Positions 19,409-25,727 of a stretch of 64,000 bases of DNA are shown in pieces. Below the pieces are notes generated by a model that searched no databases, was not told where the DNA came from, and saw only the letters and a program-made list of their open reading frames with translations. The first letter of the stretch is position 1. Every line of letters starts with the position of its first letter. Location of the stretch: contig CBDBHR010000030.1 of assembly GCA_965205865.1 (NCBI GenBank), forward strand, positions 544,001 through 608,000, given 5' to 3'. This DNA comes from a bacterium. GTDB lineage: Bacteria > SAR324 > NAC60-12. Both the position numbers and the translations under genes were made by a program.

Positions 19409-19724
19409 AAAGAATCCCCCTCCCTTGGAGGGAGGGGCCAGCACGGGAAAATCCCCCTCCCCTGGAGGGAGGGGCCAGGGGAGGGGGACAGCAGCCCAAA
19501 GAATCCCCCTCCACGCCAAGAATCCCCCTCCACGCCAAGAATCCCCCTCCACGCCAAGAATCCCCCTCCCTTGAAGGGAGGGGCCAGCACGGGAAAATCC
19601 CCCTCCCCTGGAGGGAGGGGCCAGGGGAGGGGGACAGCAGCCCAAAGAATCCCCCTCCACGCCAAGAATCCCCCTCCACGCCAAGAATCCCCCTCCCCTG
19701 GAGGGAGGGGCCAGGGGAGGGGGC
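19409..19724. repeat. Composite tandem array of GC-rich palindromic element
   Basis: Five copies of AATCCCCCTCCC(C/T)TG(G/A)AGGGAGGGGCCAG interleaved with five 19-bp truncated units AAGAATCCCCCTCCACGCC. Confidence 0.9.
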
Positions 19725-19853
19725 GCGAAGCTGGAAGATCCCCCCCGACGTCAAAAAATTCACTACTCGTCGGGTTGTCTTGATTATCCTAAAGATTTCA
19801 GTATTACTCATTGAATCACAACTATTTTTTATTATTTTCCCTATTCCGGAGCC

Positions 19854-21902
19854 ATGAGATTTCAACTGTATTTTCGTCTTGTACTGCTGCTTTTTTGTTA
19901 TTTTCTGGGAGCATGTTTCGTCTTTTTTCTTTTTCGTCTCAACTTTTTGATTCGTTTTGGAGATTTACATGAAATTTCAGTTCATTATAAATGGGACCTG
20001 TTCGAGTCTTTTTGGATGGGCGCCCGTTTCGACGCCAAGGTGCTGGCCATCTCACTGGCGCCTCTCTTTGTTTTATGCGCCTTGAGTCTGCCTTTTCCCA
20101 AGGTGAGTCGGAATCTCATATTCTTTTGCTGGCCCTGGCTTGTTTTACAGTCTTTGCTGCTTTATTTCTTGCTTTTTATAGACCAGCTTTATTACGGTTA
20201 TTTTCAAAACCATATCGATATTCGCATTTTTGGTTTTATGGAAGACGATACCCGGGCCTTGCTGGACACTTTCTGGCAGGAATACCCTGTATTGCCTGTT
20301 CTTTCCCTTTTGTTATTGCTGTCTGTTCTGACGGGCTGGCTGCTTTGGAAATTGCATGCGCGCCTGCGAAACAGAAAAGCGCCCGCCTGTTTTTCGGGGT
20401 CGGCAGCCCGCATCTCTTTTGTGATTTTTACTTTGCTTTTCGTCAGTTTGGCGGCGCGCGGTTCGCTTGGCGTCTTTCCGCTCGCAAACCAGGAACGTGG
20501 CATCTCGGATCACCAGTTTCTGAATTTATTGGCGTATAACGGCATTTTTAGTTTTTATGATGCCTTCCAGCACCGGATAGAGAATCGATTTTCCACGGAC
20601 ATGGCACCTGTTTTAGCCAGGTATGAACACAAAGACCTCCGGGAAGCGCTGCGCAACTATTACCAGCTTGCCAGCCCTCAGGCTCCTTTTCGAAGGTATA
20701 TGTTCCGCAAGTCGGAGACCGCCTTCAGTGCTCCGGATAGGAAGTACCACGTCATTCTGATCATCATGGAAAGCTGGAGCGGATATTATTTTCGTTGGCA
20801 TAACCCGAGCTTTCACCTGTTGGGTCGTCTGGAGAAGCATTGGGATTCGTTGCTCCATTTCCCATACTTTTTTTCTGCGGAAAATGGCACTATTCTCGGT
20901 CTCGAAAGCCTTCTCATAAGAAATTCGGGGTCAATTTTATCACAGACAAAGTATGCTTCGCACAGCTTCGACACTGCCATCACGCGTCCATTCCTGAAGG
21001 CCGGTTATGAAACGCACTTTATCAGCAGTGGTAAACTGGCATGGCGTAATCTCGATTTATTTTTGCCAATGCAAGGTTTTGAGAAGCTCAGTGGCCAGGT
21101 AAAATTAGAATCCTTGCGCAAGGATGAGAATGCGCAAAATAACGTCTGGGGTGTTTTTGACGGGTATATGTTTGATTTTATGCTGGAAACCCTGCGCCAG
21201 GCTGAGAAACCTCAATTTATGGTAGCCCTGAGCATTACTCACCATCCGCCTTATAGAACGCCGGACGAGTACCAGGCTTCAGCGCTGCAAATCCCTCCCG
21301 CCCTGAGCGCAAAGCTCAAGACTGATAAGGACACGGCTCGACGCGCCTTCCTTTCCTTTCAATACGCCAATGACGCTTTGGGTTATTTCCTGGAGCAGAT
21401 CGAGCAAAGCAACTTGGCGAAAGAGACGCTGGTCGTCATGACGGGCGACCACAATACCTGGGGTCTGTTGGATTACGATCAGGAGAATCTGCATTGGAAA
21501 TATGCGGTCCCCCTTCTTTTTTACCTTCCTCCGGAATTAAAAGAGAAGGTCTCTTTTGCGGACCACCAGCGCTTTGGTTCCCACGACGATATCTTTCCCA
21601 CTCTGATGGCTCTGCTCTTTCCCGAAGAGGAATTTCTGCAAACAGGTTACAATCTTCTTGCTCCCCAAAGGCCGCCAAGTTTTGCAGTGAATGCCGCCGG
21701 ATGGGCTCTGGACCCGCAAGGAGCCGTTTCCCTGACGGGTCAGCCTTTGTTTTATAAATGGAGCAGTCCCCAACGCCAGAAGCTGGTCAAAAGCGCTCCC
21801 CGGCCTGAACTCATGGAATTGAGAAAGAGGGCGCAGGCTCGTAAGGTAATTATGAATTATGCGTTGCGCGCCGATATTTCAGGAGAACAGGCAGGAAAAT
21901 AA
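19854..21902 (+). CDS. LTA synthase / sulfatase family membrane protein
   Basis: About five N-terminal TM helices, GARFD, ARGSLG, IIMESWS, SITHHPPY and TGDH motifs. Confidence 0.88.
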   Translation: MRFQLYFRLVLLLFCYFLGACFVFFLFRLNFLIRFGDLHEISVHYKWDLFESFWMGARFDAKVLAISLAPLFVLCALSLPFPKVSRNLIFFCWPWLVLQSLLLYFLLFIDQLYYGYFQNHIDIRIFGFMEDDTRALLDTFWQEYPVLPVLSLLLLLSVLTGWLLWKLHARLRNRKAPACFSGSAARISFVIFTLLFVSLAARGSLGVFPLANQERGISDHQFLNLLAYNGIFSFYDAFQHRIENRFSTDMAPVLARYEHKDLREALRNYYQLASPQAPFRRYMFRKSETAFSAPDRKYHVILIIMESWSGYYFRWHNPSFHLLGRLEKHWDSLLHFPYFFSAENGTILGLESLLIRNSGSILSQTKYASHSFDTAITRPFLKAGYETHFISSGKLAWRNLDLFLPMQGFEKLSGQVKLESLRKDENAQNNVWGVFDGYMFDFMLETLRQAEKPQFMVALSITHHPPYRTPDEYQASALQIPPALSAKLKTDKDTARRAFLSFQYANDALGYFLEQIEQSNLAKETLVVMTGDHNTWGLLDYDQENLHWKYAVPLLFYLPPELKEKVSFADHQRFGSHDDIFPTLMALLFPEEEFLQTGYNLLAPQRPPSFAVNAAGWALDPQGAVSLTGQPLFYKWSSPQRQKLVKSAPRPELMELRKRAQARKVIMNYALRADISGEQAGK

Positions 21903-22308
21903 ATGAGGCTGGCACGGAAGGGGTTGAGGTGAATAAGGTCTCGGAAGGAGACCATGACTCAGTCCTATGTCTTTTCTAACAATTAAATTCAAATATGCAA
22001 GCCTGACCCCTTTTTTGACCCCTTTTCTCCAAGAGAAGAAAACTGAAAGATGAAAATATCCCACTTTTACCTTGATTAGTCTTCCAAAATACGAAAAAAT
22101 CATGAAAAATTGTCCTTTACTCCCAGATTTCCAGTTGTTATCGTTTTCAGTGATTTTCTTATGTTGATGATTTTCAGATATTGTCTAGATGTCATCATCC
22201 TCAATGATTTTTATTTTCCTAAAATGTCACCTCTTCCGGGTCTTGTAGTATCCGGAGGTTAGGGAACATACGGAGCTTGAAACACAAGAAATTCGGAGGA
22301 AAAACCCC

Positions 22309-23079
22309 ATGCGTCCGCATCGCCGTTACAAAAACCCACCCATAGAAGAGGCGCTTTGTGAATTTCGCTTCAAACCGGGACGGGACTGGGACCTCTTCAT
22401 TCCAGGTAAACTCCATTCCAAAATCGATGAGGAATATGGTGGTAAGCCACGGGAACAAAAAGTTGTCGAGTTGGGATTGGAAGCCCAGGGAGGCAAGCCT
22501 CCCAATCTGAGATATGGTGAAGCGTTGTCAATTATCCAACTGGTCACGAAGGATGGCAAAAGGATAGTTGGGGTTGGACCCGACATACTCAACGTTCACA
22601 TGCTGCGTCCCTATCAAAATCCTCTTGATCCTGAACGCAGTGGATGGGACGAGTTCAAACCCCGGATTTCAGAAGCGCTCGATGCATACTGGAAGGTGGC
22701 TAAGCCAATTGGTGTATGTAGGATTGGTATTCGGTACATAAACAAAATCCTCATACCACAGAAAACGGTAGAGGTCGAGGAATATCTCAAGTGTGCTTTG
22801 CCGGTTGTAAGAGGATTGCCAGATCGCCGGAAGCACTTTGTGAGCCGTGTTGATTATGACTATGGAGACGGTATGCGTCTGGGTTTGTCTCAGCGATCGA
22901 TCAAGGCCCCTCCGGATCACATGGGTTTTCTGCTTGATCTTGACGTCATTTGGGAGAACTCCAAATCGCTTGCGCAGGACAAAGCATTGGAAAAAGTAGG
23001 TGACTTGCGCACTCGTGAAAGAGAAGCATTCGAAACTGTCATCACGGATAAAGCCAGGGAACTCTTCGATGCCGATTGA
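22309..23079 (+). CDS. TIGR04255-like family protein
   Basis: YKNPPIEEALCEFRF N-terminus, RIGIRYINKI, FLLDLDV and FETVITDKARELF match my recollection of this family; RBS GGAGG upstream. Confidence 0.8.
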   Translation: MRPHRRYKNPPIEEALCEFRFKPGRDWDLFIPGKLHSKIDEEYGGKPREQKVVELGLEAQGGKPPNLRYGEALSIIQLVTKDGKRIVGVGPDILNVHMLRPYQNPLDPERSGWDEFKPRISEALDAYWKVAKPIGVCRIGIRYINKILIPQKTVEVEEYLKCALPVVRGLPDRRKHFVSRVDYDYGDGMRLGLSQRSIKAPPDHMGFLLDLDVIWENSKSLAQDKALEKVGDLRTREREAFETVITDKARELFDAD

Positions 23080-23791
23080 AAAATACGTACCTGCGCGTTC
23101 CAGAACCTCGACCTTTGATTCGGACACATTCTTTAAGATGGACGAATCGGGAGTGGCCTATGCCTCCCCGCATTGGCTCACCGAGGGAAAGGAATCGTTT
23201 GCGGCTTCTTTAGACGCCGAGACACCGCAAAAAGCGATGGCGGATCTGTTCGAACTATTCCCTGAGCAAACGACAGTGGTCCCGGATAGTACTTTATGGG
23301 TTGCGCTTATTTTTCCTGTACTCGTGGATGCAGCCTGCTTCGAACCGGCAGTCTCGCAACAGGCGCCTGTTGAAGGTCGAGAACAAAAACTGCTTGCGGC
23401 CAAACTGTGGACGTCCTTTGAAGCCGACACCCTTGAAGACGGAATGGAACATCCAGCCGAGCAGATTATTGGAAAGGCGTTGCGATCCGAGGAAGAACTG
23501 CGCGTTCTTGAATGGTTCAGGGCTTTTGCTTTGGATGCTGAACGGCCGAGCTTTGCGGCATCGGTTCTGCGTTGCCTGGGACGTCAAATGCATCCGGGGA
23601 CGGATTCATGGCGTGTTGAACTCGTGCGTGACGCGCTGGCCATGGATGATGTGGAGATCAGGGACGCAGCCGCACAAGCAGCTGAATCGTGGGGTGGCCG
23701 GGATCTGATCGAGGTTCTAACGTCTCATCGTGAGCCGGAACCTTGGCTTCGAGACTACATTCGGGACATCATTGATGACCTGAGGGAGTAG
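23069..23791 (+). CDS. Hypothetical protein with C-terminal HEAT-like repeats
   Basis: ATG at 23069 overlaps the upstream gene by 11 nt; LVRDALAMDDVEIRDAAAQAAESW resembles a HEAT repeat. Confidence 0.7.
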   Translation: MPIEKYVPARSRTSTFDSDTFFKMDESGVAYASPHWLTEGKESFAASLDAETPQKAMADLFELFPEQTTVVPDSTLWVALIFPVLVDAACFEPAVSQQAPVEGREQKLLAAKLWTSFEADTLEDGMEHPAEQIIGKALRSEEELRVLEWFRAFALDAERPSFAASVLRCLGRQMHPGTDSWRVELVRDALAMDDVEIRDAAAQAAESWGGRDLIEVLTSHREPEPWLRDYIRDIIDDLRE

Positions 23792-23794
23792 GGG

Positions 23795-24310
23795 ATGTTC
23801 CTGGCACGCAAGATTACACGCGCCAAGTGGCGCCCCAAGGAGGAATTGTCGGTGGAAGAAATTCCGGCCGATGCGGTGACTGTTGATCTGAGGACACAGG
23901 AAAACTCGTTGTCTTTCTGGCAGTGTAGCATCGGGGAAGAGGCCGAAGTCGAAGAGGTGGCGCTGGCGATAGCCGCCGCAGGTGAACGTATCGATAAGCT
24001 CGACATCGTTTGGTTTTCCGATGACGAGCTGCGGGCTGACAGCCAACAGTGGAAAAAAACCGACGGACGAACACCCGTTGCAGAGTTGGTCAGGCGACAT
24101 GTCGATGTGTATCGTCTCGACTACGTGCGCCTCGGAAAAGTCGCTTCTCGTATCGCTACTGCAATAAAAGAGAGCCGATTCCGGCGGCTATCGAAGAAGC
24201 GTGTTACAGATCTCCTTGCGACAGCAGTCGAACAAGAACGTGTCAAACTGGACGACCTTGATAGTCGTGTCCATACAGAGGTGCGTGAGTCGCTCGGGGT
24301 AGAGAGATGA
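23795..24310 (+). CDS. Hypothetical protein, putative CmdT-like ADP-ribosyltransferase toxin
   Basis: 171 aa, 3 nt after the upstream stop; N-terminal Arg (LARKITRAKW) and DLRTQENSLSFW (R-x3-N-x2-S-x-W) motif. Family assignment is inference. Confidence 0.55.
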   Translation: MFLARKITRAKWRPKEELSVEEIPADAVTVDLRTQENSLSFWQCSIGEEAEVEEVALAIAAAGERIDKLDIVWFSDDELRADSQQWKKTDGRTPVAELVRRHVDVYRLDYVRLGKVASRIATAIKESRFRRLSKKRVTDLLATAVEQERVKLDDLDSRVHTEVRESLGVER

Positions 24311-24360
24311 TCCATGCACTGCTAATGGTTGTACGAATTGAAATGGGGTCAGGCTGAAAT

Positions 24361-24581
24361 GGGGTCAGGCTTGCATATTGGTATTTGGGAATTGTCTCGA
24401 GTGCAGGAGTTCTTCAGCCAACCTTGGATCGACTCTCGTCTGGGTTTCCAAGGCAATGCGTTGTCGGCTCAACGAGGAAAGGTCTCTTTGATAATACTGA
24501 GCCTCCTCCTCTAAGAGCCCGCCCTTTTCCGTATAAAAGAGCGTCATCCTTCCTCATATATAAATATGCAAGCATGACCAC
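24361..24581 (-). mobile_element. Internally deleted transposase remnant with end repeats (probably Y1/REP-associated tyrosine transposase type)
   Basis: Bounded by GGGGTCAGGCTTGCATATT and AATATGCAAGCATGACCAC; residual peptide YYQRDLSSLSR...DPRLAEEL...NMQA* resembles the HTH-like C-termini of such transposases and stops inside the end repeat. Confidence 0.5.
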
Positions 24582-24602
24582 ATTTTCGTCCGGGGTTTTT
24601 TT

Positions 24603-25727
24603 CTAATGTTGACGTCCCCGGAATCTTCTCGCCAGTCTTTTGGGGATTCGCAGAATAGGATGGCGACGCAGCAATGCCACTCGTCGGTAAACCATGAAGT
24701 ATAGAATGAACTGCAACACGAATGCCAGCATTGCCCATTCCCGGGTGTGTGGAATAAATACGGCGAAAACCAGACTGCTCATTGTTCCTCCCCAGAGCAG
24801 CACGCTGGTGATGGCATTGGCGAGCTTTTCGTTTTTCAGCGATTTTGCAATCTTGCGGGCATAGGTCCGGTAGACCAACATATGCAGGTGTACTTTATCC
24901 GGTCTGGTGGGTCGATGGCGCTTACGGATCGTTTTTCGAATAATCGAATGAACGATTTCCAGCAGCGGATATGCCAGGATCATGATGCTGACCCATTCCG
25001 ATATTTCCGGATTTCGTACGGGAAGCATGACCGCCAGGGCGCCAAGCAGGAAACCCGCGAAATAGGCTCCTCCATCTCCCAGAAAAATGTATCCCCAGGG
25101 AAAATTCACCAAGAGGAACCCCAACAGAACTGCGACGATAATGGCCGCCAACAAGACCAATTCGTAATCATCCACCATATAGGCCACAACTCCGAACGCC
25201 GAAGCCATGATGATCACGGCTCCCGCGGCCAGGCCGTTAAAACCATCGATGACGTTGATGGCGTTAGTCAGACCGCTTATTGCGAGAGCGGTGAATACGA
25301 GTGAGACGAAATGCCGCTCGATGAGATCGTCGACCAGATAGACTTCCGTTTGGGTCACCGAGTATCCGGTCATCACGCAGAAAAGCAGACCCGAAATTAT
25401 CGTTGCCAGCAGGCGCAAGACGACCGGCGCTCTTTTGGTCAAATCTTCCATCAGACCCGCAAGGAAAGCCGGGCTGCCACTCATGCCAAGCACGATCAAC
25501 AGACTTTGCGTTGGTTGGGAAGTCGCCATCACGACCATCCAGAATCCGACGAACAGGGTCAGCCCGCCGATCCTCGGTGTCGGCTTATCGTGAAACTTCT
25601 GGGGTCCCGTGAAGGTATCGAAGGTAAGAGAACCATGCCAGCGCTTGCTGAGCACGATCAGAACGCTGCCGAGTAAGGAGACAAAAAAACCGCTCGATAG
25701 CGGCCATAATTCTGAAAGAGCAAACAT
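24603..25727 (-). CDS. MraY/WecA-like polyprenyl-phosphate sugar-1-phosphate transferase
   Basis: PTPRIGG, GLMEDL, NAINVIDGFNGLA, IFLGDGGAY and PDKVHLH; multiple TM helices. Confidence 0.92.
   Translation of the reverse strand: MFALSELWPLSSGFFVSLLGSVLIVLSKRWHGSLTFDTFTGPQKFHDKPTPRIGGLTLFVGFWMVVMATSQPTQSLLIVLGMSGSPAFLAGLMEDLTKRAPVVLRLLATIISGLLFCVMTGYSVTQTEVYLVDDLIERHFVSLVFTALAISGLTNAINVIDGFNGLAAGAVIIMASAFGVVAYMVDDYELVLLAAIIVAVLLGFLLVNFPWGYIFLGDGGAYFAGFLLGALAVMLPVRNPEISEWVSIMILAYPLLEIVHSIIRKTIRKRHRPTRPDKVHLHMLVYRTYARKIAKSLKNEKLANAITSVLLWGGTMSSLVFAVFIPHTREWAMLAFVLQFILYFMVYRRVALLRRHPILRIPKRLARRFRGRQH

Follow-up and report, generated by a model that had tools for sequence, protein, structure and literature searches.

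The window, a 64,000-nt stretch of contig CBDBHR010000030.1 from a bacterium of the SAR324 lineage, carries a cassette of three genes that we regard, with moderate confidence, as a horizontally mobile tripartite toxin-antitoxin (TA)-like module, serving either addiction or anti-phage defence. Gene 1 (22309-23079, + strand, 256 aa) encodes a TIGR04255 family protein, as judged by its NCBIfam score, an AlphaFold2 (AF2) model and Foldseek; gene 2 (23069-23791, + strand, 240 aa) encodes a putative antitoxin or gene 3 partner, with a variable N-terminal part of about 100 residues and a conserved C-terminal domain at about residues 105-240; and gene 3 (23795-24310, + strand, 171 aa) encodes a putative effector or toxin of the phrog_10743 family, for which the alpha/beta model has no known fold match. 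The genes were taken from the + strand open reading frames (ORFs) of the window, and the start of gene 2 (ATG 23069) was set by the conserved N-terminus 'M.IET' of its homologues; with this start there is an 11-nt overlap at the junction of genes 1 and 2 and a 3-nt gap between genes 2 and 3, and the ORF list thus agrees with the three co-oriented and tightly coupled ORFs of the original prediction, which had been made from the sequence without database searches. The interpretation rests on comparative genomics together with one in silico complex.

A scan of one genome per species gave 98 encoding stretches, of which 80 were kept (L001-L080). Genes 2 and 3 are directly adjacent in every one of these loci, as determined by tblastn, and a gene 1 match is present in 52; these 52 include a weak match of 49 residues (L003), partial matches (L002 and L076), and one that is about 3.8 kb away (L015). 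The co-occurrence in other genomes on which the original proposal depended is therefore seen for the gene 2-gene 3 pair in 80/80 loci and for gene 1 in 52/80, and the three ORFs are real genes, the trio or the pair recurring in these loci at 45–70% protein identity. In the L015 locus gene 1 occupies positions 1070-1819, and its separation from gene 2 was perhaps caused by an insertion. We also note that L009 has a second, partial copy of the gene 2 C-terminal domain (2250-2628) 3.4 kb upstream of the cassette.

The loci lacking gene 1 have a characteristic organization, in that gene 2 is usually reduced to its C-terminal domain. Using a hidden Markov model of gene 2 residues 1-99 to score the N-terminal extension (classes based on ORF length are unreliable in GC-rich genomes), we find both gene 1 and the extension in 38 loci, neither in 29, gene 1 only in 12, and the extension only in a single locus; the loci are kin, and this distribution is a pattern rather than a statistic. 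In several of the two-gene forms the first ~10 codons of gene 1 (RQSYKNPPIE...) are fused to the C-terminal domain of gene 2, with differing junctions (L010, L013/L022/L023, and P0233), and these fused forms are deletion derivatives that keep the start signals of gene 1.

Examination of TIGR04255 genes elsewhere reveals that they head a variety of other trios. Such genes are present in 32 of 401 sampled Pseudomonadota genomes, and we examined 34 TIGR04255 loci, 30 from this sample and four from genomes chosen for their possession of the cassette. In 28 of the 34, TIGR04255 is followed by a closely spaced pair of co-oriented ORFs, each of at least 93 aa; the genes that follow TIGR04255 form 13 second-gene clusters and 11 third-gene clusters, and the second and third genes co-vary. 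The gene 2/gene 3 type is found in four of the loci, with only L107 coming from the unbiased part of the sample. Among the third genes of the 28 trios there is one PemK/MazF, and the other 27 have no Pfam match at E≤0.001. Specific examples include L110, with TIGR04255, a 95-aa gene, and a PemK/MazF gene (1.1e-18); a Vibrio plasmid with TIGR04255, a 179-aa gene, and a Zeta_toxin gene (3e-12); and a Crinalium plasmid with TIGR04255, a 182-aa gene, and a remote gene 3-like gene (hhalign 86.9%), where the middle gene has no detectable relationship to the gene 2 profile (0.9%). In a Thermus plasmid TIGR04255 is next to VapBC, a methylase, and cas6. There are at least five recurring TIGR04255-led pair types, including zeta, MazF, and gene 2/gene 3. 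We consider these trios to be the strongest argument that gene 3 fills the slot of a toxin and that TIGR04255 would be an exchangeable accessory; the TIGR04255 protein, originally suggested to be a chaperone or phage sensor, behaves as the accessory first gene of TA-like trios. In the commonest other trio of the Pseudomonadota sample (L103, L111, L116, L119, L120, L130, and L131), the second gene is ~165-208 aa long and the third ~93-166 aa, with no Pfam match for either, and the two represent another uncharacterised pair family; some of its third genes (L116, L120, and L131) have an N-terminus like '..DERLARY(I/L)..'.

The product of gene 2 is strongly acidic, with an isoelectric point (pI) of 4.5; the median across 40 homologues is 4.6. 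Its N-terminal ~100 residues are poorly conserved, with the short motifs M.IET... and GKESLA.S.DAA.LQ, and the C-terminal domain is helical, conserved, and very acidic, containing LEDGM.HPAE, PSFAASVLRCLGRQ, EIRDAAVQAAE.WG, and H.EPEPWLR.YI. A HEAT-like character had been proposed for this protein, and a weak HEAT_2 signal is indeed present in the C-terminal domain (residues 150-225, E 0.0015), but at 19.2 bits it falls below the Pfam gathering score of 27.7, and a precomputed PF13646 match is found in 4 of 120 listed gene 2 homologues.

Structure prediction with gene 2 residues 100-240 and gene 3 gives a complex with an ipSAE of 0.88 (0.87-0.88 in three runs), compared with 0.02 for the best of three controls; this mark is reached by 58 of 80 solved complexes and by 2 of 110 mismatched pairs, although this calibration is only rough because the alignments were self-made. 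Contacts are ≥95% shared among the runs, with a partner pLDDT of ≥89. The predicted interface includes the invariant residues E123-M126, E196, D199, E206, and W226 of gene 2, and in gene 3 a conserved basic N-terminal loop including K6 and K11, plus D26 and R33. The model supports binding of gene 3 by the gene 2 C-terminal domain, in line with the original suggestion that gene 2 may be the antitoxin.

In the mechanism that we envisage, the effector would be gene 3, whose small alpha/beta product has a new fold and a presumed toxicity, and the acidic C-terminal domain of gene 2 would bind and mask it as an antitoxin, presumably neutralising it. Gene 1 would be a dispensable accessory – a sensor, a stabiliser, or a regulator – and the N-terminal extension of gene 2 is probably its point of action, in a manner comparable to that of the SecB-like chaperones of toxin-antitoxin-chaperone (TAC) systems, which act on antitoxin extensions. 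For TAC systems, a published account describes an antitoxin extension that confers dependence on the third component (PMC6377645).

The distribution of the cassette is sporadic. Gene 3 is present in 2 of 88 genomes of its own phylum and is absent from the same-genus genome G001 (93% complete); a search of 30 relatives revealed no cassette DNA in any of them, whereas the neighboring wecA gene is 80% identical in G001. Relatives at 45–70% identity occur in at least ten phyla, including Chloroflexota, Latescibacterota, Gemmatimonadota, Binatota, Spirochaetota, Rhodothermota, and Pseudomonadota, and on a quickly constructed gene 3 tree the phylum labels require 24 changes, where the minimum is 10. 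Remote homologues of gene 3 (hhalign 99.8%) are the last genes of co-oriented three-gene clusters in the accessory end of the Acinetobacter prophage Ab105-1phi and on a 7.5-kb MOBQ plasmid, and the middle gene of the plasmid trio resembles the C-terminal end of gene 2 (80%). This spread across phyla, and the absence of a match in version 2 of PADLOC, bear out the prediction of a three-gene module that is conserved, horizontally spread, and uncatalogued at least in that release. Many of the holders are metagenome-assembled genomes, assigned to Latescibacterota, Dadabacteria, Binatia, Caldilineaceae, Gemmatimonadota (e.g. 'Candidatus Palauibacter rhopaloidicola'), Rhodothermales, and Spirochaetia. 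We take the holder lineages (Latescibacterota, Dadabacteria, Binatia, and others) to be typical sponge symbionts, and the 50–70% identity across holder phyla suggests exchange within one habitat.

The gene 3 family is large. A word-indexed search gave 455 related proteins, and an exhaustive profile search found 2363 clusters (at 50% identity) with E≤0.001, 1431 with E≤1e-10, and 313 with E≤1e-30; the best 150 profile matches are all single-domain proteins of 116-253 aa. No fused longer forms (329-2000 aa) were found at E≤1e-5, which with this search tool is weak evidence. Gene 3 matches phrog_10743, a family of unknown function, with an E value of 2.9e-28. Comparison of 66 diverse relatives shows that W12, S40, W42, and H102 are invariant and that R5, K11, D26, D31, T34, G91, and T93 are at least 90% conserved; the invariant serine, histidine, and two tryptophans, together with conserved basic and acidic residues, are candidate catalytic or binding residues. 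The AF2 model is an alpha/beta structure with a pLDDT of 87 and a pTM of 0.81, and in Foldseek it has no match at E≤0.001 in either PDB or BFVD, the best PDB entry having an E value of 0.16. Searches of PDB sequences with gene 3 alone gave no match at E≤10, and with the gene 3 profile only Smac/DIABLO (E 0.15), which we treated as noise; Pfam searches of the 66 relatives found no family in more than three members and none below E 0.002, and the ESM Atlas returned unnamed clusters only.

Gene 3 was originally suggested to be a CmdT-like mRNA adenosine diphosphate (ADP)-ribosyltransferase (ART) held by an antitoxin and a chaperone, on the basis of an R-x3-N-x2-S-x-W motif, and we now give this explanation very little credence. 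The residues noted (R5, R33, N37, S40, and W42) are indeed present, with S40 and W42 invariant and R5 at least 90% conserved among the 66 relatives; in the model the first, second, and fifth predicted strands contain R5, S40, and H102/D104, respectively, and this layout loosely recalls the strand positions of ART motifs. The Foldseek list for gene 3 also includes, at rank 38, entry 1wfx (E 1.1, probability 0.16, TM 0.27), presumably a Tpt1/KptA homologue of the ART superfamily, although this is within noise. An ART fold is nonetheless not recovered, as the confidently modelled protein lacks the PDB and BFVD matches noted above, no ART is among the top ranks, and there is no Pfam, PADLOC, or PDB-sequence match. 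The motif itself is not that of CmdT, which is described as having a diphtheria-toxin-type H-Y-[E,D,Q] triad with Y41 as a catalytic residue and as resembling exotoxin A (PMC11618068); the gene 3 family has no invariant tyrosine or glutamate, and no tyrosine or Glu/Asp/Gln column that would fit such a triad in the 66 diverse members. The supposed chaperone is also missing, since gene 1 is not SecB-like.

The assignment of gene 1 to TIGR04255 is secure, with a score of 123 bits against an NCBIfam cut-off of 30 (E 1.8e-35) over model positions 1-251 of 252, and it is also above the cut-off in a whole-genome search. The AF2 model (pLDDT 84, pTM 0.82) contains two beta-alpha-beta4-alpha repeats, and in Foldseek it matches AdoMetDC (E 6e-5, TM ~0.28) and TATA-binding proteins (TBPs; probability up to 0.99, target-normalised TM up to 0.45). 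Gene 1 is thus predicted to be a TBP/AdoMetDC-like duplicated alpha/beta sandwich, with the low TM scores indicating a likeness of fold type only. The SecB-like fold that had been considered for this protein does not appear among the Foldseek matches, nor is there a Pfam or PADLOC match. The ESM Atlas contains only TIGR04255 or hypothetical clusters for gene 1, a PDB sequence search with gene 1 alone gave no match at E≤10, and a full-text literature search for 'TIGR04255' found no paper. The same genome encodes a second TIGR04255 paralogue (G000:C24:30428-30958; L094 1435-2049, - strand), a 204-aa protein that aligns with model positions 2-183 only. This paralogue is located by itself upstream of a polA-like gene, without partners of the gene 2 or gene 3 type, and perhaps represents a truncated copy.

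TBP/AdoMetDC-like folds bind nucleic acids or small molecules elsewhere, and one could therefore suppose that the cassette has no role in conflict, and encodes a small regulatory or nucleic-acid-handling complex – a TBP-like binder and a heterodimer – that rides on mobile DNA. The lack of a toxin signature in Pfam, NCBIfam, or PADLOC, the many housekeeping neighbors, and an identity of 50–70% across phyla, as would arise under strong purifying selection, are all compatible with this. We regard such a function as unlikely, however, in view of the sporadic distribution and the carriage on plasmids and prophages, the Zeta and MazF toxins that occupy the same slot in sister trios, and the repeated loss of gene 1 from loci in which the gene 2-gene 3 pair is always kept.

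A second association of the cassette is with type III restriction-modification (R-M) genes. The nearest upstream ORF is an N6_N4_Mtase in 8 of 76 loci, and the nearest downstream ORF has a ResIII domain in 6/76 and an RE_endonuc domain in 5/76. Using tblastn, we find the cassette between intact and co-oriented type III mod and res genes in 7 of the 80 loci (L011, L026, L029, L034, L036, L070, and L077), five of which are three-gene forms and two of which are two-gene forms; the gaps are short, the res genes are 70–75% identical to each other, and at least five phyla are represented. Three further loci (L002, L021, and L053) have mod or res fragments beside the cassette. The seven embedded loci are scattered on the gene 3 tree, requiring six changes for seven rows, with at least two forced by the well-supported branches. 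The genome containing the window also has a res gene that is 78% identical to that of L034, 584 kb away from the cassette (G000:C30:1149000-1161000; L133), and the gap between it and its mod gene contains a 156-aa gene, a 720-aa histidine-kinase-like ATPase, a 390-aa gene with a weak receiver-like N-terminus, and a 350-aa C5 cytosine methyltransferase. Because this mod-res pair has different genes in its gap, the gap looks like a general cargo slot.

These observations raise the question of whether the cassette is an accessory module of type III R-M systems rather than a toxin pair, in which the gene 2-gene 3 heterodimer and gene 1 would modulate or back up Mod/Res, for example by controlling Res activity or by sensing anti-restriction, such that the copy in the window is a detached remnant. 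The seven embedded loci from at least five phyla and their scatter on the gene 3 tree, the fragments in three more, and the related res gene elsewhere in the same genome are all in its favor, but we think it improbable. About 70 of the 80 loci have no mod or res within 6 kb, no mod or res remnant is present near the cassette and none matches below E 0.3 anywhere in the window, the genome's own mod-res slot holds different genes, and the remote trios of the Acinetobacter prophage and small plasmids have no adjoining R-M genes.

Several observations weigh against a TA-like module, and temper the confidence with which we propose it. The correspondence between gene 1 and the gene 2 extension is imperfect, as 12 loci have gene 1 without a detectable extension motif; a small number of deletions among related loci could account for the two-gene forms; and the gene 3 tree has weak resolution, in that good support is limited to 17 of its 76 inner branches. 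Gene 3 matches no known toxin family or fold in Pfam, NCBIfam, PADLOC, PDB, or Foldseek, nor is it basic, having a pI of 5.9 and a family median of 6.3-6.7, and the Pfam search recognised in gene 2 none of the DNA-binding domains usual in type II antitoxins. Non-toxic partners would likewise be expected to form a stable heterodimer, and the complex prediction thus does not single out a TA pair. PADLOC-DB v2.0.0, a catalogue no later than 2023, has no family matching any of the three proteins at E≤1; the neighbors in 76 surveyed loci are mostly ordinary metabolic genes; no relationship to TIGR04255 is detectable for the genes that begin the Acinetobacter trios (hhalign probability <0.1% against the gene 1 profile); and a scan of IMG/VR contigs with the gene 3 alignment and one peptide pattern gave no confirmed close relative.

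Within the window, the cassette is flanked upstream by a Sulfatase family gene (19854-21902) and downstream by a Glycos_transf_4/wecA-type gene (24603-25727, - strand), beyond which are a NusG-like gene and then Wzz and Wzy_C genes. An AT-rich leader (22015-22308, + strand) with a G+C content of ~0.40 precedes gene 1, and contains GGAGG (22295-22299) 10-14 nt ahead of the ATG; the low G+C content extends across 21800-22399 (0.40-0.41, compared with ~0.5 around it). The original prediction had pointed out an AT-rich leader along with mobile-element ends on both flanks. These ends are also borne out, in that copies of a dispersed inverted repeat bracket the cassette. The left one (21985-22014, + strand, with its core at 21992-22010) has copies elsewhere in the same genome, and a small inverted-repeat unit, resembling a miniature inverted-repeat transposable element, lies directly 3′ of gene 3 (24357-24585, no strand assigned) and also has several further copies in the genome. 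A 19-nt sequence is common to them, occurring at 21992-22010 (+), at 24361-24379 (-) as a perfect inverted copy, and at 24563-24581 (+) with two mismatches; three matches were not seen in any of 100 shuffles. Compared with the intact unit, as seen at 24357-24585 and on contig C29 of the same genome, the left copy has the orientation of a right end and the one following gene 3 that of a left end, such that the cassette is between two element copies and not within one. The idea of a composite transposon was rejected.

Other signals around the cassette are sparse. A simple scan of 21850-24650 identified neither a sigma-70-like promoter before gene 1 nor a terminator after gene 3 on the + strand, the counts being within those of shuffles; and DNA similarity outside the ORFs is limited to the last ~50 nt before gene 1, and only with the closest locus, L034, with no transposon-like conserved cassette ends found. 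A tandem 16-nt duplication, TGAAATGGGGTCAGGC, is located at the left edge of the repeat unit (24339-24370, + strand), and because the contigs that carry the cassette in two other runs (X3 and X7) lack one of the copies, the duplication is judged to be recent. We also note a G/C-rich nested tandem array with 19-nt and 146-nt periods at 19410-19733, upstream of the sulfatase-family gene.

The X3 and X7 runs also hint that the island at 21905-24595 is strain-variable. Contigs with the flanking genes have a depth of ~15-19 and cease to fit the window at the sulfatase and wecA stop codons (X7 record 23, for example, departs just past the sulfatase stop codon), and the cassette-bearing contigs have a depth of ~2, these contig depths being crude; X7 record 24 bridges 21886-22842. 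An X3 contig joint, 22016>24362, has only 21 letters on its shorter side and was flagged as unreliable, and was not used as proof of an empty site. X13, labelled as a sponge metagenome and the one RNA library with cassette-like contigs, contains 0.06 of the sampled words and yields five contigs, including 22343-22447 and 23544-23808, which may derive from DNA.

A three-component TA or abortive module is a known kind of system, and it is the components and the role of TIGR04255 as a hub that appear to be undescribed, as judged by the full-text search for 'TIGR04255' and by version 2 of PADLOC. A broader proposal, which we offer tentatively and would not ourselves expect to hold in full, is that TIGR04255 is a promiscuous third component that plugs into unrelated TA pairs through an antitoxin extension, with gene 3 founding a toxin family of new fold. 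TIGR04255 would then work through a short antitoxin extension, either as a trigger sensor or as a SecB-independent equivalent of the TAC chaperone, and the proposal jointly requires that the 2363-cluster family be one of toxins with a fold unseen in solved structures, moving among phyla of a shared habitat and often within type III R-M operons. If this is true, it would assign a function to TIGR04255 and to the gene 3 family, both of them sizeable and so far orphan, and would provide a new effector fold and a second and structurally unrelated solution to the three-component logic of the SecB-type TAC systems. The recurrent placement between mod and res suggests a cargo slot in the R-M operon, and bears on the idea of defence genes travelling together.

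Comparison with known systems reveals similarities to several of them, and clear differences from each. The TAC systems, including CmdTAC, have three co-transcribed genes with a dedicated third component that serves different toxin-antitoxin pairs, an arrangement that the cassette would share, and in 67 of the 80 loci gene 1 and the gene 2 N-terminal extension are either both present or both missing; here, however, the third component would be TIGR04255, which is TBP/AdoMetDC-like and not SecB-like and is encoded first, the extension of gene 2 is N-terminal whereas that of the TAC antitoxin is C-terminal, and gene 3 is not of the ART, HigB, MqsR, or HicA type. Omega-epsilon-zeta is a three-gene TA operon in which omega is a small ribbon-helix-helix repressor; the order of an accessory gene, an antitoxin, and a toxin is the same, and the Vibrio TIGR04255 trio ends in a Zeta_toxin, but TIGR04255 is a 250-aa duplicated alpha/beta protein and gene 3 is no P-loop kinase. 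Type II TA systems share the upstream position of the antitoxin-like gene (with its 3-nt gap), the acidic partner, the predicted tight heterodimer, the sporadic distribution, and the carriage on plasmids and prophages, but gene 2 lacks a DNA-binding domain and gene 3 a known toxin fold, with its toxicity being putative. The likeness to type III R-M operons is in the co-oriented mod-cassette-res block of 7/80 loci, whereas the copy in the window is without mod or res and the cassette proteins have no methylase, helicase, or nuclease match. The families to which the cassette belongs most directly are phrog_10743 for gene 3 and TIGR04255 for gene 1, neither of which has a described function.

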